In this document: in pieces, positions 28,862 through 57,389 of the stretch
How the letters are laid out: each line of letters opens with the position of its first letter
How positions within the stretch are numbered: the first letter of the stretch is position 1
Origin: an uncultured bacterium
GTDB taxonomy: Bacteria > Planctomycetota > JAJSAM01 > JAJVHW01
Reading direction: 5' to 3'
Assembly: GCA_937996235.1 (NCBI GenBank)
Contig: CALKVK010000015.1
Coordinates: 29,744-93,743 of the forward strand
DNA: 64,000 nucleotides
The notes under the pieces: model-generated
Database searches by the model: none
Seen by the model: only the letters and a program-made list of their open reading frames with translations
Told to the model about the DNA's origin: nothing
Position numbers and translations under genes: made by a program

Positions 28862-30475
28862 TCAGGCGATCGCGCCGGCGACCGCCTTCTTGCGATCCTT
28901 GCCCTTCAGCTCCGTCACCATCACGCGCGTCGTGAGCATGGTGCCCGCGACGCTGACCGCGTGCGTGAGAGCGGACTTCGTGACCTTCGTCGGGTCCACG
29001 ATGCCCGCACGGAACATGTCGACGAGCTTGCCGCTCTTCGCGTCGAAGCCGCGCGTCTCGCTCGACTCGGCGAGCACGTCGGCGACGACGACGGCGCCGT
29101 CGCCGCCCGCGTTCTGCACGATGCAGCGCGTCGGCGCCTCGAGCGCGCGGCGCAGGATGCGCGCCGCGAACTTCTCGTCGCCCTTCAGCTTGACGCCCTC
29201 GAGCGCCGCCGCCGCGCGCAGGAGCGCGGTGCCGCCGCCGGGAACGATGCCCTCGTCGACGGCCGCACGCGTGGCGTGCAGCGCGTCCTCGACGCGCGCC
29301 TTCTTCTCCTTCGACTCGGCCTCGGTGGCCGCGCCGACCTTCACGATGGCCACGCCGCCCGCCAGCTTCGCGAGGCGCTCCTGGAGCTTCTCGCGGTCGT
29401 AGTCCGACGTGCTCGCGTCGATCTGGCGACGGATCTGCGCGACGCGCTCGCGCACGGCCGCCTGCGCGCCGGCGCCCTCGATGATCGTGGTGTCGTTCTT
29501 CGTGATCTCGATCTTCTTCGCGCTGCCGAGCTCGGAGAGCTGCACGTCCTCGAGCTTGCGGCCGAGGTCCGCGGCGAAGAACTCGCCGCCGGTCAGCACG
29601 GCGATGTCGCCGAGCATGGCCTTGCGCCGGTCGCCGAAACCCGGCGCCTTCACGGCGCAGACGTTCAGCACGCCGCGCAGCCGGTTCACGACGAGCGCCG
29701 CGAGGACCTCGTTCTCGACGTCCTCCGCCACGATCAGCAGCGGCTTGCCCGTGCGCGCGACCTGCTCGAGCAGCGGGATCAGCTCGCGCAGCGTGGAGAT
29801 CTTCTTCTCGTGCACGAGCACGAGCGCGTTCTCCATCACGCAGCGCATCTTCTGCGTGTCGGTGACGAAGTACGGGCTCACGTAGCCCTTGTCGAACTGC
29901 ATGCCGTCCACGAAGTCGAGCTTCGTGTCCATGCTCTTCGCTTCCTCGACGGTGATCACGCCGTCCTTGCCGCAGCGCTCGACGGCGTCGGCGATCAGCG
30001 CGCCGATCGCCTCGTCCTGGTTCGCGGAGATCGTGGCGACCTGCGCCATCTCCTCGCGCTTCGCGACGGGACGCGACTGACGCCCGATCGCGTCGTTCAG
30101 CGCGACCAGGCACTTGTCGAGTCCGCGCTTGAGCGCCATCGGGTCGGCGCCGGCCGAGAGCACCTTCACGCCCTCGTCGATGATCGCCTGGGCGAGCACC
30201 GTCGCGGTGGTGGTGCCGTCGCCGGCGACGTCGCTCGTCTTGCTGGCGACCTCGTTGACGAGCTTCGCGCCCATGTTCTCGAAGGGGTCCGGCAGCTCGA
30301 TCTCCTTCGAGACCGTGACGCCGTCCTTCGTGACGCCGGGGCTGCCCCACTTCTTGTCGAGGATCACCGTGCGGCCGGCCGGTCCGAGCGTCACCTTCAC
30401 GGTGTTCGCCAGCTGGGCCACGCCCTTCTGGACCTTCTTCCAGGCCTCCTCGTCGAAGAGCAGTTGCTTCGCCAT
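28862..30475 (-). CDS. groEL: Chaperonin GroEL copy 1, with an atypical C-terminus that lacks GGM repeats
   Basis: [19 protein letters not shown]...[17 protein letters not shown]...[11 protein letters not shown]...[12 protein letters not shown]. It ends ...[13 protein letters not shown]. Confidence 0.95.
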
Positions 30476-30926: not shown

Positions 30927-32552
<1,626 letters not shown>

Positions 32553-32745
32553 CCGGACGTCTCCTTCTCGCTCGATCGTCTGCCGCGGTCCGCGCCGCGC
32601 CGTGTTCGGCCGGGCGCCCGCGCCGGGTGGGGCCGTACTCCCGCCCCATCGCGCCTCCGCATCCACCGTGCCGCGCCGCCCGGGCTCGCGCAGGCTCGCC
32701 TCCCGATGACACGCTGGCAGAACCCACGCACGCCCGTGCGCCCGC

Positions 32746-38052: not shown

Positions 38053-39321
38053 TCAGCGGCCCGTGTCGGCGCCGCCCGACGGCTGCGCCGCCGAGGCGAG
38101 CGCGGCGCGCCCGTCCTTCTCGTACCACGCCTCCCAGGCCGCGACGTCCTCGCCGTGGTCCACGCCCGTCGCCTGCCGCAGCGAGCGGTAGAAGACGCGG
38201 CGCTCGACGGCCGTGAACTCCTCGTTGACGCCGAGCACGCGCGTGTCGAGCGAGACGCCCTCGCGGATCGTGCCGACGATCGGGTCGCCGATCTGCGCGG
38301 CCTGCGCGATCTCGACGTCGAAGTCGGAGATGTACGAGAGCTGGCGACCGATGAAGATCGAGTTGCGGCCCCCGGGGCCGCCGCTCGTCTTCAGCCGGCG
38401 GATGAGCCACTCGACCGACTGGCCGCCGCCGAACGCGCCGAGCGCCTCGGCGGCGTTGGTGCGCACGAGCGGCAGCGGGCTCCAGAGCGCACGCGCGAGC
38501 GGGCGCACCGTGTCCGGGTGACCGATCTCGCGCAGCGCCGCGACCGCGGCGTCGCGCACGCTCTTCTCGCGGTCCAACACGGCCGCGTGCAGCAGCGGTC
38601 GCAGCGCGTCGACGTCGCCCCAGCGCGCGAGCAGGCGCGCGGCGAGGCGGCGCTCCGCGGGCTCGCCCCGGCGCAGCGCGCGCAGTGCGGGACGGGCGAG
38701 GGCCTCCGCCGACATGCCGTCGAGCGCCTCGAGCGCGAACTTCTGGGCGCGCTCCGGTCCGGACGCCGCGCGATGGATGAGCTCGTCCGCGCGCTTCTCG
38801 TCGTCGCTCAGCTCGCGCACGGGCGTCGCGCGGCGGTCCGCGGCCTCCGCCTCCTCCTTCAGCACCCACGCGCCGTCGCGGCGCACGAAACCCTTCGCGG
38901 CGAGCAGCCGCTCGCCCGAGAGCCACGCGCCGTCGACCTGCTCCTGCGCGAGCAGCGCCCGCGCCCCGGTGTGCTCCGGATCCAGTTCGGCGACGCGCGC
39001 GGCGCACGCGCGCGACTCGTCGACGAGACCCGCGCGCTCCGCCCACAGCGCCAGCTCGTAGAGCGCGCCGGCGTCGTCCTTCGCGAGCGCGGCGCGGCGC
39101 TCCGCGAACTCGTCGGCCGGTGTGGTGTCGCGGCGCACGACGTCGACGTCGCGCCAGCGCAGCGACACGACGCCGTCGCCGGTCGTGACCTCGATGCGGT
39201 CGCCGCGGTCCGCGACGTCGCCCGCGACGACGTCGCCGGACTGCAGCCGGACGGTGTCCGCGGCAGCGCCGGCGGAGAGCGAGACGAGAATGGCGAGACA
39301 GGCCAGAGAGAGTGCACGCAC
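38053..39321 (-). CDS. Secreted HEAT-repeat (PBS-lyase type) protein that carries a short secretin-domain-derived segment
   Basis: GTG start with GGAGG 7 nt upstream. Signal peptide VRALSLACLAILVSLSAGAAA. The HEAT repeats are ALRALRRGEPAERRLAARLLARWGDVDALRPLLHAAVLDREKSVRDAAVAALREIGHPDTVRPLARAL. The segment SYISDFDVEIAQAAQIGDPIV is nearly identical at nucleotide level to part of secretin 1. The upstream 595 codons of the track ORF were rejected as antisense to the next gene. Confidence 0.65.
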   Translation of the reverse strand: MRALSLACLAILVSLSAGAAADTVRLQSGDVVAGDVADRGDRIEVTTGDGVVSLRWRDVDVVRRDTTPADEFAERRAALAKDDAGALYELALWAERAGLVDESRACAARVAELDPEHTGARALLAQEQVDGAWLSGERLLAAKGFVRRDGAWVLKEEAEAADRRATPVRELSDDEKRADELIHRAASGPERAQKFALEALDGMSAEALARPALRALRRGEPAERRLAARLLARWGDVDALRPLLHAAVLDREKSVRDAAVAALREIGHPDTVRPLARALWSPLPLVRTNAAEALGAFGGGQSVEWLIRRLKTSGGPGGRNSIFIGRQLSYISDFDVEIAQAAQIGDPIVGTIREGVSLDTRVLGVNEEFTAVERRVFYRSLRQATGVDHGEDVAAWEAWYEKDGRAALASAAQPSGGADTGR

Positions 39322-39438: not shown

Positions 39439-41100
39439 ATGCAGGACCTCGTAGACCGCCTCGTCCGCCGCCCGTGCCTCCAGCAGGCACGGCTCGCGGG
39501 CAACTCCGTTCGCAACGCGTACCACCGCAACCCCGACGACGTGATGGCGGGGCTGGCGTCGTGGAGCGCGCACCCGAGTCCGTTCGTGCGCATCGCCTCC
39601 GGCGTGGCGTACGGGGTGATCGGGGCCCGCGACCGCGACTCGCTCACGCGCATCCTGCCGTTCGTGGAGCGGCTCGCGAACGACGCCGACCCCGAGGTGC
39701 GCGAGCACGGCGCGGAGGGCGCCCTCGAGGAGCTCTGGCTGGCCCACGCCGACGCGCTCTGGACCGTGCTCGAGCAGTGGCTCCAGGGCAAGAACGACCG
39801 TGTCCGCGAGGTCGTGATCCGCACGGTCGCGCGCATCGCGGTCGGCGGGAAGATCTCGCGGCCGAGCCTGCTGCGGCGCTTCATCGAGCGCGGGCTCGAG
39901 CTCTACGACGCGCTCGTGCCCGGCGCGTCCCCCACCGTCGTGGCCACGCTCACGACCGCGGTGGACGGCATGGGCTGCCTCGCGCCCGAGGTGGTGACGC
40001 CGTTCGTGCGGCGCTGCGCCGAGCGCGACGACGCGTCGTCGCTCTCGCTCGTGCTCGACGTCGCGCGCACGCCGTTCGGCTCGCTGTGCGAGGGCGTCGA
40101 CTTCGAGGACGCGGGCATGCGCCTCGGCCGCATGCGCCACGCGGCGGAGACGGATGTCGCCGGACTCGTCAACCAGGGCGTCGGCGACGTGGAGCACCTC
40201 TCGCTCATGGGCACGTCGTTCCTCGTGCGGCAGATGAGCGACCACCTGCCCTGGACGTGGATCGCCGACCCGTACCGCGGCTGCCAGATGCGCTGCACGT
40301 TCTGCAACGCGCGCACCGGCGACGAGTGGAGCGGCGACTCGGCGGAGAAGTTCCGGCGCCGCGTGACCGTCGTGCAGAACGCGCCGCAGCTCGCGGCGAT
40401 GGAGCTGCGCAACGAGGAGCTCGCACCGCGCGTCGGCAACGTGCTCGGCATCGGCGTCACGTCCGACCCGTACCAGCCGGGCGAGGAGCGCCACCAGGTC
40501 ACGCGCGAGCTGCTGAAGGCGTGCCTCGAGAGCGGCCACCCGGTCGTCGTGCAGACGCGCCAGGCGCTGATCCTGCGCGACGTGGACCTGCTCGAGATGC
40601 TCGCGAAGCGCGACCTCGTGAACGTCTACGTCGCGCTGCAGGCCGCCGAGGACGACGTGCGCGCGCGCATGGAGCCCGACGGCGCAACGGTGGCGGAGCG
40701 CCTGCGCGTCATGCGCGTGCTCTCGAGCCGCGGCGTGCCCGTCGCGCTGCTGCTCTCGCCCGTGATGCCCGAGGTCACCGACGACCTCGAGCTGCTCGGG
40801 GACACGCTGCGCCGCGCGAAGGACGCGGGCGCGTCGTGGGTCACCGCGGAGGTGCTGAACCTGCACGGCTCCGCGCGCGCGAAGGTGCGCCTCTTCCTCG
40901 AGTCGCAGTCGCCGGCGATGGTGGACACCTACCGCGCGCTCTACACGGCCGGTGCACGGCCGGGCGATCCCGATCCGGCGTACGAGCGCTGCCTGCTCGA
41001 GGAGACGCTGCCCGAGCTCGCGCGGCAGCACGGTCTCGTCCAGACGGCGCGCATGCTGACGTCCGGACGCGACCCGCAGCTCTGCCTCGTGCGCCGCTGA
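39439..41100 (+). CDS. Fusion protein: N-terminal DNA-alkylation-repair (AlkD-like HEAT-like) domain plus a C-terminal radical SAM domain (SplB / DNA-photolyase-like)
   Basis: AYHRNPDDVMAGLASWSAHPSPFVRIASGVAYGV... is AlkD-like. IADPYRGCQMRCTFCNA is the CxxxCxxC radical SAM cluster motif, followed by TIM-barrel-like sequence. This is the real gene inside the 1171-aa track ORF. Confidence 0.75.
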   Translation: MQDLVDRLVRRPCLQQARLAGNSVRNAYHRNPDDVMAGLASWSAHPSPFVRIASGVAYGVIGARDRDSLTRILPFVERLANDADPEVREHGAEGALEELWLAHADALWTVLEQWLQGKNDRVREVVIRTVARIAVGGKISRPSLLRRFIERGLELYDALVPGASPTVVATLTTAVDGMGCLAPEVVTPFVRRCAERDDASSLSLVLDVARTPFGSLCEGVDFEDAGMRLGRMRHAAETDVAGLVNQGVGDVEHLSLMGTSFLVRQMSDHLPWTWIADPYRGCQMRCTFCNARTGDEWSGDSAEKFRRRVTVVQNAPQLAAMELRNEELAPRVGNVLGIGVTSDPYQPGEERHQVTRELLKACLESGHPVVVQTRQALILRDVDLLEMLAKRDLVNVYVALQAAEDDVRARMEPDGATVAERLRVMRVLSSRGVPVALLLSPVMPEVTDDLELLGDTLRRAKDAGASWVTAEVLNLHGSARAKVRLFLESQSPAMVDTYRALYTAGARPGDPDPAYERCLLEETLPELARQHGLVQTARMLTSGRDPQLCLVRR

Positions 41101-41132
41101 GCGCACGCGGGCGGACGCCCGCTGCGCGCCGC

Positions 41133-41582
41133 TCAGCGCGTGCCGGCGGAGCCCGGCGCGCGGCAGTCGGGACAGCGGCCGAACAGGCGCAGCGAGTGGC
41201 TCACGAGTTCGAAGCCGTGCGCCTCCGCGACCTGCCGCTGCAGCGCCTCGATCGCCTCGTTCTCGAACTCGACGATGCGACCGCAGCGCGAGCAGATCAG
41301 GTGGTCGTGGTGGTGCTGCCCCACCATCACCTCGTACATGAGCTGGCCGCGCTGGAACTCACGGCTCTCGACGAACTCGCCCTCGCAGAGCAGCGCCAGC
41401 GTGCGGTACACGGACGCGCGGCTCACGCGGTGACCGCGCGCGCGCAGCCGGTCGAGCAGGTCGTCGGCGGTGAAGTGGTCGTCGGTGTCGAGCAGCACCT
41501 CGACGATGCGACGACGCGCGTCGGTGCTGCGCAGCCCGCGGCTGCGCAGGTAGCGGATCACGCGCTCGACTCCCTCCGTCAT
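41133..41582 (-). CDS. fur: Ferric uptake regulator family transcription factor
   Basis: RSRGLRSTDARRRIVEVLLDTDDHFTADDL...HHHDHLICSRCGRIVEF...CPDC shows the Fur DNA-binding helix plus HHHDH and CxxC metal sites. Confidence 0.8.
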   Translation of the reverse strand: MTEGVERVIRYLRSRGLRSTDARRRIVEVLLDTDDHFTADDLLDRLRARGHRVSRASVYRTLALLCEGEFVESREFQRGQLMYEVMVGQHHHDHLICSRCGRIVEFENEAIEALQRQVAEAHGFELVSHSLRLFGRCPDCRAPGSAGTR

Positions 41583-41659
41583 CGCGCGCAGTTGTAGCGG
41601 ACGCCGCGCTCCCCGTCGCGTGACGACTTCGCGCGCGGCGCCCGGCGCCGCCGCGGCGC

Positions 41660-42409
41660 TCAGCGCGCCGCGCGCAGGAGCGCGAGGAAGCGCGCGATCT
41701 CGCGCTGCACCTTCGGGTACTGGCGCACGACGAGCTTGTCCTTGAGCACGGCGATCGAGACGCCCTCGTCGTCCCACGTGTCCGCGGCGACGTACTCCTT
41801 CACCATCTCCGCGACCTTGTCGCCGTCGGCGAACGGGTTCTCGACCTCCGAGACCTCCTCGTCCTCGAACTCGGCGCCGGACGGGTGCAGGTTGATGTCC
41901 GGTCCGGGGAAGTTCATGAGCGGCGCCGTCAGCTCCCCGATCGGGTAGATGCGCAGCACCGGCTTCCCGCGCGCGGCGGCCTTCGTCGTCACGCGCAGGA
42001 TCCCGCCGTCGAACGCGAGCGCCGTGTCCGTGAACCGCAGCGTCAGGTCCACGACCTGGAGCAGCGAGACGCGCTCGAGCTTCATCGTGAGGTGCGGCAG
42101 GGCGTCGAGTCCGTCGCGCTGGAGCTCCGGCGCGACGATCACGTTGAAGCCCGCCACGCGCGCGACGAACGCGACCACGTCGGCGAGCTCCATCTCGCGG
42201 AAGTCGACGCTCACGCGCTGCGCGTCGAGCCGCCGGCGCGCCTCCTCGAGGGAGCGCGGCGCCGGGCGCTGCACGAGCGGCGTGCCCGCCGCGGGAGCCG
42301 GCGCCTTCGCGGTCACGCCGGCGGCAGGGGCAGCCGGGCGGTCCCCGGCGGCGGCGGGCGCCGCGAGCACGGCGAGGCCGAGTGCGAGGCAGGCGAGCAG
42401 TGAGCGCAT
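41660..42409 (-). CDS. Secreted paralog of the N-terminal (STN-like) region of the TPR-secretins, with no secretin C-domain
   Basis: Signal MRSLLACLALGLAVLAAPAAAG with GGAGG RBS. VSVDFREMELADVVAFVARVAGFNVIV...IYPIGELTAPLMNFPGPDINLHPSG aligns with ISFTDATLDEAVEYLGRVSGTNIVV...MYDIKDLATPIANFPGDEINLDPQG of secretin 1. Confidence 0.65.
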   Translation of the reverse strand: MRSLLACLALGLAVLAAPAAAGDRPAAPAAGVTAKAPAPAAGTPLVQRPAPRSLEEARRRLDAQRVSVDFREMELADVVAFVARVAGFNVIVAPELQRDGLDALPHLTMKLERVSLLQVVDLTLRFTDTALAFDGGILRVTTKAAARGKPVLRIYPIGELTAPLMNFPGPDINLHPSGAEFEDEEVSEVENPFADGDKVAEMVKEYVAADTWDDEGVSIAVLKDKLVVRQYPKVQREIARFLALLRAAR

Positions 42410-42509
42410 GCGAGGAACCTCCGACCGCGACCCCGCCGCCATGCTAGCGGTCGCCGCCGGGGCGGGAAGGGGCCGCGCCGCAGCCGGCCCGCGGCGACGC
42501 GGCGGCCCG

Positions 42510-43787
42510 TCAGCGGCCGAGCGCGCGCGACGCGATGTCGCGGCGGAACTGCATGCCGTCGAAGCGGATGCGCTCGACCGCCTCGTACGCGCGGTCGCGC
42601 GCCGCCTCGACGTTCGCGCCGAGCGCGGTGACGCCGAGCACGCGGCCGCCGTTCGTGACGACGTCGTCGCCCACGCGCTTCGTCCCGGCGTGGAACACGA
42701 GCACGTCGTCGAGCTCCCCCGCCTCGCGCAGGCCGTGGATCGCGTCGCCCTTGCGCGCGGACTCCGGGTAGCCCGCCGACGCGAGCACCACGCACACGGC
42801 CGGTCGCGGGTCCCAGTCGAGGTCCTCGACCTGGTTCAGGCGCCCTTCGGCGCACGCGGCGAGCAGCGGCACGAGGTCCGAGCGCAGCCGCGGCAGCACG
42901 ACCTGCGTCTCGGGGTCGCCGAAGCGGCTGTTGAACTCGATGACGCGCGGACCGCCGCGGGTCGCCATCAGCCCCGCGTACAGGACGCCGCGGTAGTCGA
43001 CGTGCTCCCGCGCGAGCGCATGGACGATGCGGACGAGGATCTCGCGCGTGACGACGTCGAGCAGCGCGCGCGTCGCGACGGGCGCAGGGCTGTACGCGCC
43101 CATGCCGCCCGTGTTCGGGCCGCGGTCGCCGTCGAAGATGCGCTTGTGGTCCTGCGCCGACTCGAGCACGGCGAGCGTGCGCCCGTCGGTCAGCGCGTGG
43201 ACGCTCACCTCCTCGCCGCGCAGGTGCTCCTCGATCACGACGGTGCGCCCCGCGTCGCCGAAGCGCCCCCCCTCGAGCATCGCGTGGACGGCGTCGAGCG
43301 CCTCCTCCAGCGTCTCGGCCACCACGACGCCCTTGCCCGCCGCGAGGCCGTCGGCCTTGAGCACGATCGGGAAGTGGCGCTGCGCCTCGATGTACTCGAC
43401 GGCCTCGTCGAGACGGTCGAACGTGCGCGCCGACGCCGTCGGCAGGACGTAGCGGTGCATGAGCTGCTTCGCGTACGACTTCGACGCCTCGAGACGGGCG
43501 CCCGCCGCGCCGGGCCCGAAGACGAGCACGTCGGCCGCGCGCAGGCGGTCGGCGAGCCCGGCCGCGAGCGGCGCCTCGGGCCCGACCACGACCAGCCCGA
43601 TGCGCTCCTTGCGGCACAGCGCGGCGATGCCGTCGTGGTCGCCGTCGGCGATGTCCGCCGTCTCGGCGACCGTCGACGTGCCGGCGTTGCCGGGCGTCAC
43701 GATCAGCCGCTCGACGAGCGGGCTCTGCCGGATCTTCCACGCGAGCGCGTGCTCGCGCCCGCCGCCGCCCACCACCAGGACTCGCAT
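42510..43787 (-). CDS. purD: Phosphoribosylamine--glycine ligase
   Basis: MRVLVVGGGGREHALAWKI...ATP-grasp motifs...PurD C-domain. Confidence 0.9.
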   Translation of the reverse strand: MRVLVVGGGGREHALAWKIRQSPLVERLIVTPGNAGTSTVAETADIADGDHDGIAALCRKERIGLVVVGPEAPLAAGLADRLRAADVLVFGPGAAGARLEASKSYAKQLMHRYVLPTASARTFDRLDEAVEYIEAQRHFPIVLKADGLAAGKGVVVAETLEEALDAVHAMLEGGRFGDAGRTVVIEEHLRGEEVSVHALTDGRTLAVLESAQDHKRIFDGDRGPNTGGMGAYSPAPVATRALLDVVTREILVRIVHALAREHVDYRGVLYAGLMATRGGPRVIEFNSRFGDPETQVVLPRLRSDLVPLLAACAEGRLNQVEDLDWDPRPAVCVVLASAGYPESARKGDAIHGLREAGELDDVLVFHAGTKRVGDDVVTNGGRVLGVTALGANVEAARDRAYEAVERIRFDGMQFRRDIASRALGR

Positions 43788-44076
43788 CGTGCCTCCCGTG
43801 CCGTCGCCGCGGCGGCATTCTGGACGAGACGTGGGCGCCTCCGAAGCGCTGCCGGGCGGCGCGATTTCCCTACCGTCGCGCGCCCGCGCCGTCCTACGCT
43901 CCCCGGCCCTTCGCGCGGGCCCGACCTGCGCGCCGTTCCGCCCCCGCGGCGGAGCCTGACACGACGGACGGCAGACGTCCCCCGGGCGCCGCTCGCGGCG
44001 TGCGGGGACGGTTCCCGCGGCGCGCGTGCGACGCGGCGCCGGCGGGGCAGCGCCGCGGACGGGCCGCAGCCGCGGA

Positions 44077-44154
44077 CGGGGCGTAGCTCAGCCTGGCTAG
44101 AGCGCCTGCTTTGGGAGCAGGAGGCCGGAGGTTCGAATCCTCTCGCCCCGACCA
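44077..44154 (+). tRNA. tRNA-Pro (anticodon TGG)
   Basis: CGGGGCGTAGCTCAGCCTGGCTAGAGCGC...anticodon loop CTTTGGGAG...GGTTCGAATCC...CGCCCCGACCA. This is a cloverleaf with an encoded CCA. Confidence 0.85.
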
Positions 44155-44186
44155 GAGCCCGCCCGCGCGGCCCGGCGGCGACGCAC

Positions 44187-44238
44187 ACACGGCACGCACG
44201 GCACGCACGGCACGCACGGCACGCACGGCACCGCACGC
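44187..44238. repeat. Microsatellite: 9-bp unit ACGGCACGC x ~5
   Basis: acggcacgc is repeated in tandem between tRNA-Pro and tRNA-Arg. It is followed by two imperfect ~24-bp direct repeats GCG(C/T)CTGCGACG(T/C)GCGCG(A/G)ACAC at ~44250..44300. Confidence 0.6.
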
Positions 44239-44304
44239 GCGCCGCACACGACGCGCCTGCGACGTGCGCGAACACGGCGCGTCTGCGACGCGCGCGGACA
44301 CAGC

Positions 44305-44381
44305 GCGCCGATAGCTCAGTTGGACAGAGCAGCGGATTTCTAATCCGCCGGTCGCAGGTTCGAGTCCTGCTCGGCGCGCCA
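44305..44381 (+). tRNA. tRNA-Arg (anticodon TCT)
   Basis: GCGCCGATAGCTCAGTTGGACAGAGCAGCGGATTTCTAATCCGC...GGTTCGAGTCCTGCTCGGCGCGCCA. Confidence 0.85.
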
Positions 44382-44457
44382 GCGCCGCGCGCGGCCCGGA
44401 CGGCGCATCGGCCGGACGAGACGCTGGCCGGACGACACGGTGGCCGGACGACACGGT

Positions 44458-44535
44458 GGTGGGTGTAGCTCAGTTGGTTAGAGCGCCTGACTGTGGCTCA
44501 GGAGGTCGCGGGTTCAAATCCCGTCACTCACCCCA
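44458..44535 (+). tRNA. tRNA-His (anticodon GTG) with a G-1
   Basis: G-GTGGGTGTAGCTCAGTTGGTTAGAGCGCCTGACTGTGGCTCAGG...GGTTCAAATCCCGTCACTCACCCCA. It is preceded by a 16-bp tandem duplication CCGGACGACACGGTGG x2. Confidence 0.85.
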
Positions 44536-44626
44536 TCCGGCAGCGTCCGGCAACCCGTCCGGCACCCGCTGCGGCAGCCCGTCGGGGCCGCGGTGACGGA
44601 CGCCACGCCGCTCCCGTCGCGGCAAC

Positions 44627-44655
44627 TTGCGGACGGCGCCGGGCCGCGCTATGAC
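44627..44655 (+). promoter_or_regulatory. Sigma-70-type promoter for tRNA-Lys
   Basis: TTGCGG - 17 bp - TATGAC, ending ~75 bp upstream of the tRNA 5' end. Confidence 0.4.
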
Positions 44656-44731
44656 TTGCCCTCCCGTGCCGGGCGCCGCTCGCGCGCGCCACGGCGGGGA
44701 CGTCGGCGGGCTCCCGCCGGCGGCGGAACGT

Positions 44732-44808
44732 GCCTCCTTAGCTCAGTTGGTTAGAGCAACGGATTCTTAATCCGTGGGTCCTAGGTTCGAGTCCTAGAGG
44801 GGGCACCA
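44732..44808 (+). tRNA. tRNA-Lys (anticodon CTT)
   Basis: GCCTCCTTAGCTCAGTTGGTTAGAGCAACGGATTCTTAATCCGT...GGTTCGAGTCCTAGAGGGGGCACCA. Confidence 0.85.
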
Positions 44809-44866
44809 GCACCCGCGCGCGGCGCCGCGCGCCCGGCCGGCGACGCCCGGCCGCCCGCTCTCCGCC

Positions 44867-45817
44867 GTGACGAGGGACGCCGTCCGCACCGTGGCCGCGC
44901 TCGCCGTCGGGACGCTCGCCGTCTCCGCCGCGGCGCCGCTCATCCGCCTCGCCGCCCTGCCCGCCGTGGCGCTGGCCGCGTGGCGCACGGCGACGTGCGG
45001 CGCGCTGTACGCGGCGCTCCGTCCGCGCGACCTCGCGGCGCTGCGCGGTCTCGGCTCGCGCGAGTGGCTCCTGCTCGCCGCGGCGAGCTCGCTGCTCGCG
45101 CTGCACTTCGGCCTCTGGATCTCCGCGTTCGAGCACACGTCGTACGCGTCGACGGTGCTGCTGCTCGTCACGCAGCCGCTCTTCGGCGCGCTCGTCGGTC
45201 GCGTCGCGTACGGGGAGCGGCTCGGCGCCGCCACGTGGTTCGCGCTCGCGGGCGCGGCCGGCGGGCTGGCGCTGCTCGTGCACGCCGACGTGCGCGGCGC
45301 CGCGGAGACGCCGCCCGCCGACGCGCTGCTCGGCGACGCGCTCGCGGTGCTCGGCAGTCTCGCGATCGCGCTCTACTACGTGGCCGTGCGCCCGCTGCGG
45401 CGCGCGCTCCCGTTCGCGCCGTTCATGGCGGCGACGTACGGCGGCGCCGGCCTGCTGCTCGCCGGCGCCGCGCTCGCGCTCGGCGTGCCGCTCCACGGCT
45501 ACGCGACGGCGTCGTGGGGCTGGCTCGCCGTCCTGGTCCTGCTCCCCACCGCCGTCGGCCACGCCTGCTTCAATTGGGCCGTCCCGCGCGTGCGCTTCTT
45601 CACGCTGAACCTGCTCATCGTGCTGGAGCCGGCGCTCGCCCTCGCGTTCGGCGTGGCGTTCCTCGCCGAACGCGTCACGGCGCCGCAGGTCGTGGGCGGG
45701 GGCGTGCTCGGCGCGGCGGTGCTGGTCGGGCTCCGGCGCCCGCCGCAGCCGCCGCGCGCGGACGCGTCGACGGACGCGGCGACCGATACGGCGACCGATG
45801 CGGAGGACGGCCCGTGA
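44867..45817 (+). CDS. EamA/DMT-superfamily 10-TM transporter
   Basis: GTG start. Two EamA-like halves of hydrophobic helices, with an A/D/T-rich C-terminal tail. Confidence 0.7.
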   Translation: MTRDAVRTVAALAVGTLAVSAAAPLIRLAALPAVALAAWRTATCGALYAALRPRDLAALRGLGSREWLLLAAASSLLALHFGLWISAFEHTSYASTVLLLVTQPLFGALVGRVAYGERLGAATWFALAGAAGGLALLVHADVRGAAETPPADALLGDALAVLGSLAIALYYVAVRPLRRALPFAPFMAATYGGAGLLLAGAALALGVPLHGYATASWGWLAVLVLLPTAVGHACFNWAVPRVRFFTLNLLIVLEPALALAFGVAFLAERVTAPQVVGGGVLGAAVLVGLRRPPQPPRADASTDAATDTATDAEDGP

Positions 45818-48056: not shown

Positions 48057-50696
48057 ATGAAGACGCCTCGAGTTGCCGCAGCGCTTGCGCTCGCGGGCGC
48101 GGCGCTGTCTCTGGGGGCTTGCAAGAGCGGCGAGTTCCCCTTCTTCGGTAAGAAGAAGGCCGCCGCCCAGCCGGCCGCCAAGAAGGCGGACGACGCGCAG
48201 CAGCCCGCCGCGGCCTCGGCCACGGCCGTCGCCAAGCCTGCGTCGGACGGCGCGCCGTCGCTCGACGAGGTGCGCAAGGACCGGAGCGTCCGCGAGCAGG
48301 CCCGGCAGACGCTCGTCCAGAACTTCCTCAAGATGGGCGACGACGCCTTCGCGGCTTCGCGCTTCGAGGACGCCGAGTCGCACTACAACTCGGTGCTCGA
48401 CCTCGACCCGTCGAACGAGCACGCCCGCCGGCGCATGCAGCAGATCGGTGCGGCGCTCGGCAAGCGCGGCGTGACCGAGGGCGAGGCGATGGAGGGCGCC
48501 CGGGACCTGAAGACGGTCCAGGTGCAGCAGGCCAAGGCCGAGGTCGCCCGCCTGGTCGCCGAGGGCAAGGCGAAGGCGGCGGCCGGCGACATGGCCGGCG
48601 CGGTCACCCGGTACGAGCGCGCGCTCGTGATCGAGCAGCTCTACCCGCGCACGGTCGACTTCAGCCCGACGCCGGACGGACTGCGCGCCATGCTGCGCTC
48701 CGCACGCGAGTCGGCCGAGGCCTCGGCCGACGCCGCGCGCCGCAAGGTGCTCCAGGAGGCGCACGACCAGGCGCGCCTCGAGGCCGCGCGCCAGCGCGCC
48801 GCCCAGCAGTCGCGCGTCAACAACCTGCTCAAGCAGGCGAACGAGGCGATGGAGCGCCGCAACTACCAGCTCGCCGAGAACCTGTCGGCCGAGATCCTGA
48901 CCTCCGACCCGCTCAACGCGTCGGCGAAGCGCCTGCGCGAGATCGCCCGCGACGCCCGCATGGCGGACGCCGACGAGCGCCTCCAGGCGACGCTCCTGAA
49001 CGAGTGGAAGTACACGTTCGCCGACCTGCGCGAGGCGACGACGCCGCAGGTCGAGGAGTACACCTTCCCCGACACGTGGAACGAGGTGCAGGGGCTGCGC
49101 ACGGCGCCCTCGCTCTCGGTCTCCGCGGCCGGCGAGGAGGACGCGCGCTCGCGCGAGGTGCGCAACCGCCTCGCCGCGGCCCGCACGACGATCAGCTTCA
49201 CGGACGCGACGCTCGACGAGGCGGTCGAGTACCTCGGCCGCGTCTCGGGCACGAACATCGTCGTCATGAACGAGGCCCGCGAGGGCCGCTCCGACGACGA
49301 GCTCGCGATCACGCTCAAGCTCGACTCGGCCGAGTCGGTCGACAAGATCCTCGAGCTGATCGCGCAGTTCAAGGGCCTCGCCTGGACGGTCGAGAACGGC
49401 ATCGCCCAGATCACGACGCCCGAGGCCGCGCGCGGCAAGTCGATCGTCCAGATGTACGACATCAAGGACCTCGCGACGCCGATCGCGAACTTCCCCGGCG
49501 ACGAGATCAACCTCGACCCGCAGGGTGAGCACGAGGTCGAGGAGGAGGTCCCGGAGCCGGTCGCCGAGTTCACCGGCGACGCGATCAAGGACCTGATCGA
49601 GCAGAACGTCGACAAGACGGTCTGGGAGGAGGGCGGCTCGATCGACCTCCTCGAGCCGGGCACGCTGGTCGTCAAGGCCCCGGCCACGACGCACGCGAAG
49701 ATCCAGAGCCTGCTCGGCGGCCTGCGCGGCGCCGGCGGCCTCGAGGTCTCGATCGAGACGCGCTTCGTCACGGTCGAGGACAACTTCCTGCAGGAGGTCG
49801 GCGTCGACCTGCGCGGCCTGGGCGACCAGTCCGGCGGCATCGGCGTGGCCGGCAAGGGCGGTCTCGCCGGACCGGGCGGCATCTCGGTGCCCGTCACGTT
49901 CGACGACCTGTTCTTCGGCTCGGCCGGCAACCCGTCCGGCATCGGCACGGGCGGCGACACCGGCATCTTCTACAACCTCAACAGCGACGGCGACATCCGC
50001 GGTCGCTTCGAGAACCTGTTCGACGTCGCGCTGGGCCGCCAGGGCGTCCTGACGAACCTGGGCGGCTTCTCGTTCCAGGGCACGCTGATCGACGACACGC
50101 AGCTCGAGGTCATCCTCCGCGCCGTCGAGAAGAGCAGCCGGAACACGCTCGTCGTGGCGCCGCGCCTCACGGCCTACAACGGCCAGCGCGCGAACGTCAC
50201 GGTCCTGAACCAGATCTCGTACATCTCCGACTTCGACGTCGAGATCGCCCAGGCCGCGCAGATCGGCGACCCGATCGTGCAGACCCTGCGCGACGGCGTC
50301 ATCCTCGACCTGCGTCCGGTCGTCTCCTCGGACCGCCGCTTCATCACCATGGAGCTGCGCCCGACGATCGCGCTGCTGCAGCGCCCGATCGCGACCTTCC
50401 AGACCACGCTGGCGAACGGCCCGCCGGTCACGATCCAGCTCCCCGAGATCCAGATCCAGCGCGTCCGCACGACGGTCACCATGCCCGACAACGGCACGCT
50501 GCTCCTGGGCGGCATGAAGTTCTTCACCGAGCAGCGGCTGGACTCCAGCGTCCCGTGGCTCTCGGACATCCCGATCGTCAGCTTCTTCGTCTCGCGCAAG
50601 GCGACGTACCTCGAGAAGCGCAACCTGCTCGTGCTGATCCGCGCGCGCATCCTGCGTCCCGAGGAGAACGAGCCCGGCTCGACCGTCGGTCGCTGA
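48057..50696 (+). CDS. Lipoprotein secretin 1: TPR-like N-region plus STN-like domain plus GspD/PilQ-type secretin C-domain
   Basis: RBS AGGGAGGGG. Lipobox MKTPRVAAALALAGAALSLGAC. STN-like ISFTDATLDEAVEYLGRVSGTNIVV. Secretin motifs are RFVTVEDNFLQEVGVDL...VVAPRLTAYNGQRANVTV...LLLGGMKFFTEQRLDSSVPWLSDIPIVSFFVSRKATYLEKRNLLVLIRARIL. Confidence 0.8.
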   Translation: MKTPRVAAALALAGAALSLGACKSGEFPFFGKKKAAAQPAAKKADDAQQPAAASATAVAKPASDGAPSLDEVRKDRSVREQARQTLVQNFLKMGDDAFAASRFEDAESHYNSVLDLDPSNEHARRRMQQIGAALGKRGVTEGEAMEGARDLKTVQVQQAKAEVARLVAEGKAKAAAGDMAGAVTRYERALVIEQLYPRTVDFSPTPDGLRAMLRSARESAEASADAARRKVLQEAHDQARLEAARQRAAQQSRVNNLLKQANEAMERRNYQLAENLSAEILTSDPLNASAKRLREIARDARMADADERLQATLLNEWKYTFADLREATTPQVEEYTFPDTWNEVQGLRTAPSLSVSAAGEEDARSREVRNRLAAARTTISFTDATLDEAVEYLGRVSGTNIVVMNEAREGRSDDELAITLKLDSAESVDKILELIAQFKGLAWTVENGIAQITTPEAARGKSIVQMYDIKDLATPIANFPGDEINLDPQGEHEVEEEVPEPVAEFTGDAIKDLIEQNVDKTVWEEGGSIDLLEPGTLVVKAPATTHAKIQSLLGGLRGAGGLEVSIETRFVTVEDNFLQEVGVDLRGLGDQSGGIGVAGKGGLAGPGGISVPVTFDDLFFGSAGNPSGIGTGGDTGIFYNLNSDGDIRGRFENLFDVALGRQGVLTNLGGFSFQGTLIDDTQLEVILRAVEKSSRNTLVVAPRLTAYNGQRANVTVLNQISYISDFDVEIAQAAQIGDPIVQTLRDGVILDLRPVVSSDRRFITMELRPTIALLQRPIATFQTTLANGPPVTIQLPEIQIQRVRTTVTMPDNGTLLLGGMKFFTEQRLDSSVPWLSDIPIVSFFVSRKATYLEKRNLLVLIRARILRPEENEPGSTVGR

Positions 50697-50758
50697 CACC
50701 GCCGCTCGGCGGACGCGGACGGCGCACGCCGCCGACCGCGGAACGACGAACACCAGAC

Positions 50759-50795
50759 CAGGGGAGGCCGACCGCGGCCTCCCCTGTGTCGTTCC
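50759..50795 (+). terminator. Intrinsic terminator after secretin 1
   Basis: Perfect 12-bp stem CAGGGGAGGCCG / CGGCCTCCCCTG with an ACCG loop, then TGTCGTTCC. Confidence 0.6.
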
Positions 50796-50832
50796 CGGCC
50801 GCGGCGAGTCCGGTTCGGACGCAGGCAGCCCC

Positions 50833-50860
50833 TTGACGCGCGCGCACGCCGCGCTACAGT
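50833..50860 (+). promoter_or_regulatory. Candidate sigma-70 promoter for the large TPR lipoprotein gene
   Basis: TTGACG - 16 bp - TACAGT. A second candidate, TTGCGC - 17 bp - TACGAT, lies at ~50986..51014. Confidence 0.35.
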
Positions 50861-51149
50861 CCATCTGCCTGTTCGTCCCCGCGCGGGGCCCGGACACGAC
50901 ACGAGAGGGCCCGCGCGCATGCAGTTCCCCACACTCCCGGAACTCCTCCTCCGCGCCCGCGCGTCACGCGCCCGCGGATTGGTGACGAATGTTGCGCCGC
51001 CTCCGGCGCATGGCTACGATCCGGCGCCGACTCGTCCGGACTCCCTCCGGGGACGCGGAACCGCGGCGTCCGAGCGGCGCGCGGCGTCGCTCGCCGGGCG
51101 CGCGGCGGCATCGTGGCGCGCCCGTCGCGCCCCATCGACCGAGGTGACC

Positions 51150-54134
51150 ATGCCCCGCCGTTCGCTCCTCCCGCGCTTCGTCCTCGTGGTCGCCGGGCTC
51201 GTCGCGGCCTGCGGCATCGCCCACGCGTACGAGGACGACTTCGAGTTCGCGCAGGCGCTGGCGGACCGCGGCTACACCGACCTCGCGGAGCAGCAGTTCC
51301 GGGCCCTGCTCTCGGACCCGAAGCGCAGCGCGAAGGAGAAGGCCGAGGGGCAGTACGGGCTCGCGATCATCAAGCGCATCGACGCGCTCGCAGCGGCACG
51401 CGAGACGAGCGAGCGGCGCCGCAGGCCGCTGAAGGAGGTCCTCGACCTCTTCCGCCAGGCCGACGCGGCGATCGCCTCGTTCATCGAGGCCAACGCCGCG
51501 CACCAGCGCGTGCTCGAGGCGAAGCTCGACCGCGCGAACCTGATCACCGACCGCGCCAACTACATCAACCTCGCGATCGAGCGCGGCTGGCTGCCGGCGG
51601 ACGTCTCCGAGGGCGATCTGCAGAAGGAGGTCGCGCAGGGCTACGACACGGCGATCTCGCTCCTGCAGGCCGTGCAGGACAAGGCGAAGAAGGACGTCGA
51701 GGGCAAGGCGCTCGGCACCGAGGAGTACGAGGACGCGCAGGAGCGCCTGGGCCTCGTGTGGCTGCACCGCATCGTGGCGCTGTACGGCAAGGGCGCCGCG
51801 CTGCCGCGCGGCGACACGAGCGGCGTCGCCGCGCTGAACGCGGCGATCTCCGAGGTCACCGACTACCTGTGGTCGTTCGACGGCACGCTGCGCGGCCTGT
51901 GGGCCTCGTACTACGGCGGGCTCGCGAACTGGAAGCTCGACCGGACGACGGACGCCGTGCGCGACATGGGCGACGTCACGGGGTACGTGAGCGAGTCCGA
52001 CGGCGTCCCGGCGGCGCGCGGCGTCTCGCTGCAGGCGTACGAGATGCTCGGCACGATCGCGCTCGACGCCGCCGACCGCAAGGGCGAGGAGGAGCTCGCG
52101 CGCACGGCGCTGGCGCGCCTCGACCGCCTGCCCGGACAGTGGCCGACGTACCTCGACGACGCCGCCGGGCAGCGCGCGGCGGTGTCGCGCGCACGTCTCC
52201 TCGCTCGTGCGCAGCGCACGCGCGAGGCGATCGAGCTGCTGCAGAACGTCCTGAAGAAGGCCGACGAGAAGCACACGGGCGTCGACGGCGCCGCGGGCGA
52301 GCTGCTCGCCGAGCTCCTCACGTCGACCGCGTCGGGCGGCGTCAAGCTCGACCCGGCGCTCCTGAACAGGATCGCGATCGCGAAGTGGCGCGACGGCGAC
52401 TACCCCGGTGCGATCCGGGCGTTCCAGGGCGTCATCGGTGCGTGCCGCACGCCCGAGCAGCGCGACGAGTTCGCGTGGGACGCGTGGGACTACATCGGCC
52501 GCTGCTACGGCATCGAGGAGCGCTGGTACGAGGCGTTCCTGGCGTTCGACGCCATCGAGAAGGCGTGGCAGGCGGACCAGAAGAGCGCGAAGCTCGCCGA
52601 GATCACGCAGGAGACCGGCTGGAACCGCGCGCAGGTCGTCGGCAAGCTCGGCATCGTCACGAAGGACGCGGCGGAGTCGGCGCGGCTCAAGGCGTGGGCG
52701 AAGGAGCTCCTCGACGAGTTCGCGCGCAACCACCCGGAGAGCCCGCGCAACCAGGGCGCGGAGCTGCAGGCCGCGACCGAGAAGCTGCGCGACGCGCAGG
52801 GCATGCGGCGCACGGGCGACTACGCCGGCGCCCTCGCCAAGTACGACGAGGCGATCGCCGCCCTCACCGCGACCGACAAGGGCAGCAGCCAGATCGACAA
52901 GGTCGAGGCGCTGATCGCGCAGGCGCGCCGCGAGACCGCGCGCTGCCTGCACGAGCAGAAGGACGACGCCGGCGCGGTCAAGGCGCTCGACGAGGCGCTG
53001 CGGCTGTCGCGCGCGTGGCTCGCGAAGCAGCGCCCCGCGGCCGAGGTCTCGACGGTGCGCCAGGCGCGCGCCGCCGGCGAGTCCATCGCGCTCACGAACA
53101 TCCTGACCGCACTGGCGGAGAAGGCCGACTACGTCGCGCAGGACCAGCGCAAGGCGGTCTTCGAGGAGCTCCTGAAGGAGATCGACGCCAAGGGCGCCGA
53201 CTTCCTGCGGGCCGTGAGCCGCGGCCAGACCCTGCTCGACCAGTGGCGCACGGAGGCGCTGATCGGCACGGACCAGGTCGAGAAGGCGGAGAAGCTGCTG
53301 CAGGACCTGCTCGCCAAGGACCCGGATCTGGCGAACGGCCCCTACCTCGCCGCGCTGGTCGCGCGCGCGCTCGAGACCGAGGCCAACACCTGGCTCGACA
53401 AGGGCGACGAGGGCCGCTACCGCACGCTCATGCTGCGCTCGGCGCGCCTGCGCGAGTACGCGATCACCAAGGCGGGAGACCCGAGCCCCGAGTCGTACCT
53501 CTCCCTCGCCTCCACCTTCCGGAAGTCGGGAGACCTCGAGAAGGCCGAGGAGTACTACCGCAAGGCCCAGGAGGCCTACGCGGGGCGCGGCGACGACGAG
53601 CGCGCCCGCGCCGTGCGGCTCGAGCTGATCAACCTGCTCGTGGACCAGCGCAAGTTCGAGGACGCGATCCGGCCGCTCGAGGTCGAGCTCGTCCCCGACC
53701 AGGGCGCGCGCCTCGCCGTGCTCGACCGCCTCGCGAAGGACGACAGCCTCACGAAGGAGGAGCTCGAGAAGCTCCTCGAGACGATGTCGCGCAACCGGCG
53801 CGTGCTCGACGTGCTGGCGCGCGCGTACGTCGAGGCGGCGCGCGACGACAAGGACCTGCTGCGCTCCGTCAACCTGACGAACGTGCTGCTGTACTGCCAG
53901 CCCGACGAGGACAAGTACGGTCCCGACTGGGTCGAGTACCAGCTCCGCCTCTCCACGGCCTACTTCAAGTACGGCGCGCTGAAGAACGACCCCGAGGCCT
54001 TCAAGAAGGTCGAGCGGCTGATCCAGACGCGGCTGGTCGTGCAGAACCTGCTCGACACGTGCAACCAGCTCGTGCCGGGCTCGAAGAAGAAGTTCGAGGA
54101 CCTGCTCGCCCGCGCGAAGAGCGGGGGCAGGTAG
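51150..54134 (+). CDS. Large (994 aa) all-helical TPR-like lipoprotein
   Basis: Signal plus lipobox MPRRSLLPRFVLVVAGLVAACG. There are many TPR/Sel1-like helical pairs, e.g. YAGALAKYDEAIAAL...LSLASTFRKSGDLEKAEEYYRKAQEAY. The R-rich 77 codons upstream in the track ORF were rejected. Confidence 0.65.
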   Translation: MPRRSLLPRFVLVVAGLVAACGIAHAYEDDFEFAQALADRGYTDLAEQQFRALLSDPKRSAKEKAEGQYGLAIIKRIDALAAARETSERRRRPLKEVLDLFRQADAAIASFIEANAAHQRVLEAKLDRANLITDRANYINLAIERGWLPADVSEGDLQKEVAQGYDTAISLLQAVQDKAKKDVEGKALGTEEYEDAQERLGLVWLHRIVALYGKGAALPRGDTSGVAALNAAISEVTDYLWSFDGTLRGLWASYYGGLANWKLDRTTDAVRDMGDVTGYVSESDGVPAARGVSLQAYEMLGTIALDAADRKGEEELARTALARLDRLPGQWPTYLDDAAGQRAAVSRARLLARAQRTREAIELLQNVLKKADEKHTGVDGAAGELLAELLTSTASGGVKLDPALLNRIAIAKWRDGDYPGAIRAFQGVIGACRTPEQRDEFAWDAWDYIGRCYGIEERWYEAFLAFDAIEKAWQADQKSAKLAEITQETGWNRAQVVGKLGIVTKDAAESARLKAWAKELLDEFARNHPESPRNQGAELQAATEKLRDAQGMRRTGDYAGALAKYDEAIAALTATDKGSSQIDKVEALIAQARRETARCLHEQKDDAGAVKALDEALRLSRAWLAKQRPAAEVSTVRQARAAGESIALTNILTALAEKADYVAQDQRKAVFEELLKEIDAKGADFLRAVSRGQTLLDQWRTEALIGTDQVEKAEKLLQDLLAKDPDLANGPYLAALVARALETEANTWLDKGDEGRYRTLMLRSARLREYAITKAGDPSPESYLSLASTFRKSGDLEKAEEYYRKAQEAYAGRGDDERARAVRLELINLLVDQRKFEDAIRPLEVELVPDQGARLAVLDRLAKDDSLTKEELEKLLETMSRNRRVLDVLARAYVEAARDDKDLLRSVNLTNVLLYCQPDEDKYGPDWVEYQLRLSTAYFKYGALKNDPEAFKKVERLIQTRLVVQNLLDTCNQLVPGSKKKFEDLLARAKSGGR

Positions 54135-54152
54135 CCCGTGAGGGACGCAACG

Positions 54153-55316: not shown

Positions 55317-55405
55317 GGTCTCGCGCACGCCGACGTGGGGTCCGTCGGCGGGCGGGATCGAGAGACGCCTCCGGAACGAGGGCTTACAGCCAAGGAGTGC
55401 CCTGC

Positions 55406-56140: not shown

Positions 56141-56146
56141 CGCCAC

Positions 56147-56671
56147 ATGGCGAAGAAGCGCACGACTGCGGAGGCCGGGAAGGACGTCGAGGGCGGGGCC
56201 GAGATGGACATGACCCCGATGATCGACATCACCTTCCAGCTCATCGTCTTCTTCCTCGTCGCGAACGACCTGACCCGCAAGGAGGTCGAGGAGCTCAAGC
56301 TCCCGCAGGCGATCTACGGCAAGGAGGACAAGGCGACCGAGAAGGACCGCCGTGTGATCATCAACATCCTCGCCCCGGAGGACAGGGCGAACCCGCCTGA
56401 CATCCCCGAGGTGAAGGTCAAGGGCAAGCCCTACGGACTCGACGACCTCGAGCGTCTGATGCGCACCGAGGCCGACTCGAAGCGCGAGACGGACGGTCCG
56501 GGTGCGCCGAGTGCGATCTTCGTTCTGATCCGCGCCGACAAGGACACGCCGTGGCAGCACGTCCAGTACGTGATGCAGGTCTGCGCCGACCCGTCGATCC
56601 GCATCTACAAGATGCAGTTCGCGACGACGAAGCGTGACGACGGCAAGGCCACGTCGGCGAGCGGTGAATAG
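56147..56671 (+). CDS. exbD: ExbD/TolR family protein (paralog 1)
   Basis: MDMTPMIDITFQLIVFFLV TM region plus a periplasmic ExbD domain. Confidence 0.85.
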   Translation: MAKKRTTAEAGKDVEGGAEMDMTPMIDITFQLIVFFLVANDLTRKEVEELKLPQAIYGKEDKATEKDRRVIINILAPEDRANPPDIPEVKVKGKPYGLDDLERLMRTEADSKRETDGPGAPSAIFVLIRADKDTPWQHVQYVMQVCADPSIRIYKMQFATTKRDDGKATSASGE

Positions 56672-56680
56672 GAGCATCCC

Positions 56681-57199: not shown

Positions 57200-57389
57200 G
57201 GGTTCAGGACCCCGTATCGACCCCTTGCGCACACTCCGTGCCGCCCCGGCCCTGCCGGGGCGGCACACCGCGCTGCCTCCCCTGCCTGCCTGATCCCGAG
57301 TCGTGAGCGGGTGCTCGCGCGACGGCGCGACGCCCTCCCCCACCGCCTGTCCCGTCCCCGGCCGCGCGCGCGAGCGCAGGAGGCCGGAC

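Follow-up and report, generated by a model that had tools for sequence, protein, structure and literature searches.

Background

Secretins are usually studied as single polypeptides, in which the N-domains link the pore in the outer membrane with the machine in the inner membrane, and the Planctomycetota carry many genes for secretins and for ExbB and ExbD that have no assigned role. Here I describe a gene for a 249-residue protein, located on the minus strand at positions 41660..42409 of a stretch of 64,000 nucleotides from an uncultured planctomycete (GenBank assembly GCA_937996235.1, contig CALKVK010000015.1, positions 29,744 to 93,743). This whole stretch is referred to as the window, and all positions without a locus name are given in its own numbering. 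The encoded product, hereafter the N0-N1 protein, corresponds to the periplasmic N-terminal region of two secretins encoded in the same window, and its gene lies between purD and fur.

The domains concerned, as well as free N0-fold partners of secretins, are already known. BfpG is a free N0-fold protein with a signal peptide that binds the type IVb secretin BfpB in a ratio of 17:17, forming a hoop around the N3 ring of BfpB and promoting its multimerisation, and TcpQ, CofC and LngC are, like BfpG, free proteins of the N0 fold that partner the secretins of type IVb pili (PMC12531336). In mitochondria, Secretin_N-type domains occur as the stand-alone proteins GspDN1-3 beside a GspD that consists of the barrel only, and an interaction between GspD and GspDN1 was found by two-hybrid assay (PMC8134430). 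An N0 domain is also present outside secretins at the C-terminus of VirB7 from Xanthomonas, as a module that decorates a ring (PMC3093366), and SlkA and SlkB are small periplasmic plug proteins of PilQ, acting on the lumen of the secretin (PMC13392014).

The N0-N1 protein resembles BfpG and TcpQ in that it is predicted to be exported, not to be a lipoprotein, and to have an N0-like fold without a barrel; its AlphaFold2 model also matches BfpG structurally. However, BfpG is a single domain of about 90 residues without detectable similarity to secretin N0, whereas the N0-N1 protein has both N0 and N1 and is 32-34% identical to the secretins of the window. Moreover, BfpG is encoded in a pilus operon and belongs to the phylum Proteobacteria, while the gene described here, from Planctomycetota, lies between purD and fur, outside the secretin operons. 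With the N0-N1 regions of PilQ, GspD and EscC/InvG/MxiD it shares the same two-domain fold in the same order, but it lacks N3, the barrel and the S-domain, carries an insertion of about 38 residues in N1, and is a separate gene product. The mitochondrial proteins derive from a split gene, in which the secretin lost its own N-region and N0 is absent, whereas the secretins of the window keep their N0-N1 regions and the free copy is an additional one. In TonB-dependent transducers and in FecR/PupR, the STN domain has a TonB-dependent barrel or a membrane-anchored anti-sigma factor as its fusion partner and works with an extracytoplasmic function (ECF) sigma factor; the N0-N1 protein, in contrast, is free-standing, carries N1, and has no sigma/anti-sigma pair beside its gene in the window. 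VirB7 is a lipoprotein of a type IV secretion system, and no homology of the N0-N1 protein to VirB7 or to SlkA/SlkB was found. In literature searches on Planctomycetes secretins and STN domains I found no description of a conserved free N0-N1 protein that is clearly paralogous to the organism's own secretins, restricted to Planctomycetota and encoded beside fur.

Findings

A tblastn search of the whole window with the N0-N1 protein gave only two significant matches besides the protein itself, all others having E > 2. One is the N0-N1 module (49155..49682, plus strand) of secretin 1, encoded by the gene at 48057..50696, with 34% identity over 178 residues (E 3e-25). The other is the corresponding module (62746..63333, plus strand) of secretin 2, whose gene (61174..>63999) is cut by the end of the window, with 32% identity over 199 residues (E 4e-25). 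The modules of the two secretins show 31% identity between them, so that all three copies stand at about equal distances from one another, as old paralogs. The segment IYPIGELTAPLMNFPGPDINLHPSG is present in the N0-N1 protein and is aligned to MYDIKDLATPIANFPGDEINLDPQG of secretin 1. An initial annotation of this DNA, made without database searches, had proposed a stand-alone paralog of the secretin N-terminal region that aligns along its length with the part of secretin 1 before the secretin domain, including this segment; sequence, profile and structure comparisons all uphold that proposal. The N0-N1 protein is thus an ancient stand-alone paralog of the periplasmic N-region of two secretins with tetratricopeptide repeats (TPR).

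Secretin 1 is composed of TPR, N0-N1 and barrel, and has a lipobox-like LSLGAC. Besides the TPR and a FecR_C-like match, PF00263 (the Secretin barrel) is found at residues 726-904 (2e-24), and the best NCBIfam match is to the Amuc_1098 type IV pilus outer-membrane family, below its cut-off. In secretin 2 the first half of PF00263 is present, up to the point where the window cuts the gene. The N0-N1 protein ends where the beta-barrel of a secretin would begin, after N1, and Pfam finds no PF00263 in it, as expected from the annotation that it stops before any secretin domain.

The domain structure was examined with an AlphaFold2 model built on an alignment of 67 sequences, which has a mean predicted local distance difference test (pLDDT) score of 89.4, with 193 residues at 90 or above. 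A short helix (residues 54-63) precedes the N0 (STN-like) domain (residues 65-141), both within 41987..42250 (minus strand, residues 54-141), and N0 is followed by an N1 or Secretin_N-like domain (residues 151-248; 41666..41959, minus strand) with the secondary structure beta-[insert]-alpha-beta-beta-alpha. Apart from the insertion of about 38 residues after its first strand, the topology of the modelled N1 fits Secretin_N. The insertion (41828..41941, minus strand) is modelled as a beta-meander with pLDDT >90 and contains the motif NFPGPD.NL.P; no other stretch of the family is as conserved. Its motif is clearly shared by secretin 1 (NFPGDEINLDP) and more loosely by secretin 2 (NFIAPNLQLRP).

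Structure comparison matches the two domains together to the N0-N1 regions of EscC, MxiD, GspD and InvG. N0 also matches the signalling domains of the FecR/PupR type and of FecA/FpvA, at the level of the fold, and shows significant profile similarity to the N0 of PilQ. In Pfam, the protein gives a weak match to GspD N0 (PF21305) only, with E 0.028 and 14.7 bits against a curated cut-off of 27; the N0 fold is present, whereas a sequence match at the curated threshold is not. At E<=0.01, PF21305 is detected in 7 of the 67 family members and STN (PF07660) in 2, while Secretin_N (PF03958) is detected in 33 (best 2e-6), the N0-N1 protein itself not being among them. Measured against a complete secretin, N0 followed by an N1-type domain is found and the C-terminal barrel is not. 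In this confident model, the protein combines two domains, N0 (STN-like) first and N1 (Secretin_N) second.

Among 5.8 billion proteins, a word-indexed search retrieved a family of at least 65 sequence clusters, 210-343 residues long and from 66% down to 32% identical to the N0-N1 protein. All members come from metagenome-assembled genomes of Planctomycetota, and the few that carry names are called 'hypothetical protein [Planctomycetes bacterium]'; a protein identical to the one in the window is also on record in public collections (P0001). The family members share one C-terminal end point, ...LLRAAR, with motifs conserved up to the last residues. A truncated remnant of a secretin, or a pseudogene, was considered and rejected in view of the 65 clusters with the same length class, the same C-terminus and conserved motifs. 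Judged by this conservation, the gene is a real one under selection and not a remnant.

The open reading frame found in the window runs from 41660 to 42442 (minus strand), of which 41660..42409 is the coding part, with 249 codons and a stop. The most likely translation start is the ATG at 42409, because a GGAGG lies 7 nucleotides upstream of it and because the ATG at 42442 falls inside a promoter-like TAnnnT box. The longer reading from 42442, which would give 260 residues, was dropped for the same reason, the box being invariant in eight orthologous loci. The N-terminus, MRSLLACLALGLAVLAAPAAAG (residues 1-22; 42344..42409, minus strand), read from the sequence, is hydrophobic and resembles a Sec signal peptide; AlphaFold2 places a helix at residues 3-15, and an end of the type A-x-A-(D/E) is kept in the family alignment. 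A conserved lipobox cysteine is absent from that alignment, and a reading as lipoprotein was rejected since Cys7 is not conserved and is too near the N-terminus. Between signal peptide and the folded part lies a variable linker rich in Pro and Ala (residues 23-52; 42254..42343, minus strand), which has pLDDT 54-62 and differs in length between orthologs. The annotated 249-residue secreted protein is accordingly confirmed as to its reading frame, and its secretion is made probable by the conserved signal-peptide-like N-terminus.

The gene downstream, fur (41133..41582, minus strand), encodes a Fur-family regulator of 149 residues (PF01475, 1.4e-35). Its best NCBIfam matches are Fur models, not Zur or PerR ones, and none of them reaches its curated cut-off. 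The stop codon of the N0-N1 gene occupies 41660..41662 and the ATG of fur is at 41582, which leaves a gap of 77 bp between the two co-oriented genes, exactly as annotated. The comparison covered 13 distinct loci with orthologs at 37% identity or more (the window, L001, L002, L003, L005, L006, L008, L009, L015, L017, L019, L020 and L021). A Fur-family gene is present within 2.3 kb of the ortholog in all 13 of them, and in 10 the two genes are immediate neighbours in the same orientation, 45-405 bp apart. In L006 and L017, an ABC transporter resembling TupA/TupB/ATPase, of the tungstate/molybdate type, lies between the ortholog and fur (7212..9199 in L006; 2477..4611 in L017, with gaps of about 35 bp), all genes being co-oriented. 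In L002, on a 2-Mb contig that is the same as that of L007, the ortholog alone is inverted (6001..6819), so that 94 bp separate it from the divergent fur, and only 4 bp from the convergent purD.

The usual gene order is purD, the N0-N1 gene, fur, a radical SAM gene with HEAT repeats on the opposite strand, and a gene for a HEAT protein. The fourth of these is represented in the window by a synteny-conserved gene at 39439..41100 (plus strand), which converges on fur and codes for a PA0069/Rv2578c-type radical SAM protein that is extended at its N-terminus by HEAT repeats. L015 and L016 keep only the pair: upstream, a Ser/Thr kinase-FGE-sulfatase gene and a gene for a Planctomycete-type ECF sigma factor replace purD (618..4282 in L015), and the downstream genes differ as well. 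A kinase-FGE-sulfatase gene is likewise found upstream in L013, while no ECF sigma gene is present beside the N0-N1 gene in the window or its ortholog in the other 11 loci. In L019, purD is kept and the downstream gene is different. As the pair is retained despite changed flanks (L015/L016 and L019), an inversion and the insertion of a transporter, it has survived several rearrangements. However, purD accompanies the gene nearly as constantly as fur does, and the linkage to fur may therefore reflect inherited gene order. Near more distant stand-alone members of the family (26-32% identity; L010 and L013) no fur was found. Neither was a secretin found within the 6-kb flanks of the orthologs; in the window, the N0-N1 gene is about 5.6 kb from secretin 1 and outside both secretin operons.

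Upstream of the gene, a -10-like box, TAGCAT (42441..42446, minus strand), conforms to TAnnnT in all eight aligned orthologous upstream regions. It is followed by a leader, GGGTCGCGGTCGGAGG (42418..42433, minus strand), which includes the Shine-Dalgarno sequence and is conserved in the eight loci in the form GGG(G/A)TCGC..CGGAGG, the rest of the intergenic DNA having diverged. The leader has a single exact match in the window, namely this one, and there is therefore no sign of a motif shared by a regulon; a degenerate version of it gave no matches in the loci, the pattern being too strict. For fur, a -10-like box TACAAC (41591..41596, minus strand) lies 9-14 nucleotides upstream of the ATG, within 41583..41600 and without a Shine-Dalgarno sequence, and the same position is occupied by GGTAGAA(C) in L001, L002, L003, L005, L008 and L020, and by TACCCT in L015 and L017. 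The conserved GGTAGAA(C)/TACAAC box is 8-12 nucleotides away from the ATG. This suggests from the sequence that the fur mRNA is leaderless or nearly so. That each of the two genes has its own -10-like box, and fur no Shine-Dalgarno sequence, argues for separate promoters. The separate boxes, the variable gap and the one inversion are likewise indirect evidence against obligate co-transcription of the two genes, which look like independently transcribed units that conserved gene order keeps side by side.

A consensus scan for sigma-70 promoters and intrinsic terminators over 40900..44300 gave no sites of either kind. RNA folding compared with shuffled sequence gave z -0.6 for the 77-bp spacer and z -0.7 for the region after fur, hence no significant hairpin, and an Rfam scan of 41000..45000 at E<=1 returned only four tRNAs and chance matches. 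The Fur box that had been suggested upstream of the N0-N1 gene could not be found in its Escherichia coli form: between 41480 and 42620 the best score against GATAATGATAATCATTATC is 9/19, a weak negative as the operator of this Fur may differ from that consensus. The best score anywhere in the window is 12/19, away from both genes. In the aligned upstream regions there is also no conserved palindrome or AT-rich stretch upstream of the -10 box.

The N0 module itself is far more widespread than the family. When 1.84 billion representatives were searched exhaustively with a profile, 19,085 reached E<=1e-3 and, among these, 866 reached E<=1e-30. The profile included the two secretin segments, and the list of the top 150 is biased towards multi-repeat proteins. 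Three architectures can be discerned: proteins with a single module, proteins of about 780 residues with two full N0-N1 modules, and proteins of 500-1800 residues with 5-13 tandem N0 domains. In seven multi-repeat proteins that were checked, Pfam detects STN in all, FecR_C in most and the Secretin domain in none; examples of proteins that contain the module are P0066, P0067, P0069, P0079 and P0113. When the N0-N1 protein was compared by BLASTP with the 152 full modules in the sample, 82 short proteins ranked first (100% to 35% identity), followed by secretins 1 and 2 of the window, with other long proteins at 31% identity or less. Literature searches on Planctomycetes and secretins, in which the few papers retrieved mention secretins only in passing judging by term counts, gave nothing that describes multi-repeat N0 proteins without a barrel.

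A second piece of secretin sequence occurs close by. The gene for an exported HEAT-repeat protein of 422 residues (38053..39321, minus strand), about 2.3 kb beyond fur and in the same synteny block, encodes a Gate-1-like segment of 59 residues (residues 317-375; 38197..38373, minus strand) that is 58% identical to the part of secretin 1 encoded at 50181..50360 (E 2.6e-14), with 51% identity to secretin 2. No other part of the HEAT-protein family (66 clusters) is as conserved, and the matching segment of secretin 1 aligns with f1 pIV from the hinge at Gly267 to Gly297, that is, with the Gate 1 loop and inner-barrel strands. AlphaFold2 models the segment as a long beta-hairpin with pLDDT of about 58, a low value, as would be expected for a piece that folds only in an oligomer. 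The presence of two secretin-derived pieces on either side of fur raises the possibility that the locus serves secretin machines.

The window has a G+C content of about 75% and contains the housekeeping genes mreB, mreC, ftsY, der, speA and purD as well as two copies of groEL. Secretin 1 opens a run of co-oriented genes (48057..57902, plus strand) that continues with two large TPR proteins (50919..54134 and 54138..55316), ExbB (55406..56140) and three ExbD genes (56147..57902), and a sulfatase-TPR protein (58576..60552) is encoded between the ExbD genes and secretin 2. Four tRNA genes, Pro-TGG, Arg-TCT, His-GTG and Lys-CTT, are located at 44077..44808 (plus strand), between purD and a gene for an EamA transporter. 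The two co-oriented Cpn60/GroEL paralogs (28862..30475 and 30927..32666, minus strand) are about 450 bp apart.

Discussion

How could a free copy of the secretin N-region function? The protein would be exported by Sec and, after cleavage of its signal peptide, be a soluble periplasmic protein, which might act on a secretin complex in trans. For this it would have the same N0 and N1 surfaces with which secretins build stacked periplasmic rings and hold their inner-membrane partners. It could then form an accessory ring or hoop on the vestibule of the secretin, as BfpG and TcpQ do on type IVb secretins, or bridge the vestibule to the TPR and ExbB-ExbD proteins encoded beside secretin 1. By analogy with these systems I tentatively favour a role as a trans-acting periplasmic partner or ring subunit of a secretin, though at somewhat less than even odds. 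The reasons are that within the window its paralogy is confined to secretins 1 and 2, whose modules also rank highest among those of the long proteins compared, that the gene is conserved under selection and has promoter-like elements of its own, that its product keeps a signal-peptide-like N-terminus without a lipobox, and that free N-domain proteins that bind secretins have precedents in BfpG/TcpQ and GspDN1. Several observations weigh against such a role: the gene lies outside the secretin operons, and no secretin is found in the 6-kb flanks of its orthologs; BfpG has no sequence relationship to the N0-N1 protein and no N1; and the conserved adjacency to fur is left unexplained. In addition, the N0 module is not specific to secretins, and many of the 19,085 representatives carry it without a Secretin domain. 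As such barrel-free carriers are abundant, the N0-N1 protein could work without a secretin.

This last point leads to a different explanation, in which the protein is a secretin-independent periplasmic scaffold, the single-module member of an N0/STN expansion in Planctomycetota, and its similarity to secretins reflects shared ancestry of the module only; its partner would then be something else in the periplasm or envelope. The size of the expansion is in line with it (19,085 representatives reach E<=1e-3, and 866 of these E<=1e-30; many have 5-13 tandem modules and no Secretin domain), as are the proteins of about 780 residues with two full N0-N1 modules, the unrelated contexts of the distant stand-alone members in L010 and L013, and the position of the gene outside a secretin operon. 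However, among the modules of long proteins that were compared, those of the co-resident secretins are closest to the N0-N1 protein, the unusual NFPGPD insertion is common to it and secretin 1, and N0-N1 pairs in solved structures are mainly parts of secretin vestibules, so that I consider the scaffold rather unlikely, perhaps one chance in a few. The initial annotation had gone in yet another direction, with a regulatory or decoy role for the secretin/ExbBD system, hinted at by the iron regulator next door. Spelled out, this would mean that a free N0-N1 protein made under the control of Fur competes with secretin N0 for an inner-membrane partner (ExbBD, TPR or TonB-like) and so tunes the activity of the channel to metal status. 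The part of this proposal that stood is the adjacency, with a Fur-family gene near the ortholog in all 13 loci, including L015/L016, where both flanks differ, and L019. The co-orientation of ortholog, TupABC-like metal-oxyanion transporter and fur in L006 and L017 would also fit, the 94-bp divergent spacer in L002 could be a shared control region, and secretin 1 has ExbB and three ExbD genes beside it. The regulation itself stays hypothetical, with circumstantial evidence on either side. An E. coli-type Fur box is lacking in 41480..42620, weak evidence as the consensus of the host may be another; nothing palindromic or AT-rich is conserved above the -10 box; and the separate -10-like boxes and the one inversion speak against a promoter shared with fur. 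Moreover, purD is nearly as conserved a neighbour without any plausible functional tie, and distant members have no fur, which together make a Fur-controlled decoy improbable.

The annotation also invoked the STN domains of TonB-dependent transducers, which signal to anti-sigma factors. At the level of the fold this analogy holds, and one could imagine that the STN-like domain contacts an anti-sigma factor or a kinase sensor and feeds an ECF sigma factor. Yet only a single lineage has ECF sigma and kinase genes as neighbours, with none beside the gene in the window or in the 11 remaining loci, sequence profiles favour the N0 of PilQ/GspD over STN or FecR_C, and the attached N1 is typical of secretins; both sequence affinity and domain arrangement are thus secretin-like, and I regard cell-surface-type signalling as very unlikely. 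Finally, DNA of 75% G+C gives many long spurious open reading frames, and an annotation artefact, or a decaying remnant of a secretin, should be considered. Sixty-five clusters with the same end, the confident AlphaFold2 model, the conserved Shine-Dalgarno sequence and promoter-like box, and the identical protein on record leave this with practically no probability.

A more specific scenario would combine the free N0-N1 protein with the HEAT/Gate-1 protein as two trans-acting, secretin-derived parts encoded around fur, the two together gating or plugging the TPR-secretin/ExbB-ExbD channels according to metal status. It is a long shot, to which I attach little credence. If true, it would amount to a secretin-based transport coupled to the proton-motive force with detachable regulatory subunits. 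TonB and TonB-dependent receptors have been reported absent in many members of the phylum (PMC3422733).

Conclusion

In this conserved family the connecting piece of a secretin is encoded a second time, as a free and presumably periplasmic protein, although the secretins retain theirs. If the N0-N1 protein binds a secretin, the principle known from BfpG and TcpQ would hold in a further phylum, and for a form with two domains that is clearly a paralog of the secretin. Such a small soluble protein would also be a practical handle on secretin machines for pull-downs and structures, and the persistent pairing with fur gives rise to a simple, testable hypothesis of metal control. The thousands of multi-repeat proteins that carry the module without a barrel may in the end matter more than this gene alone.

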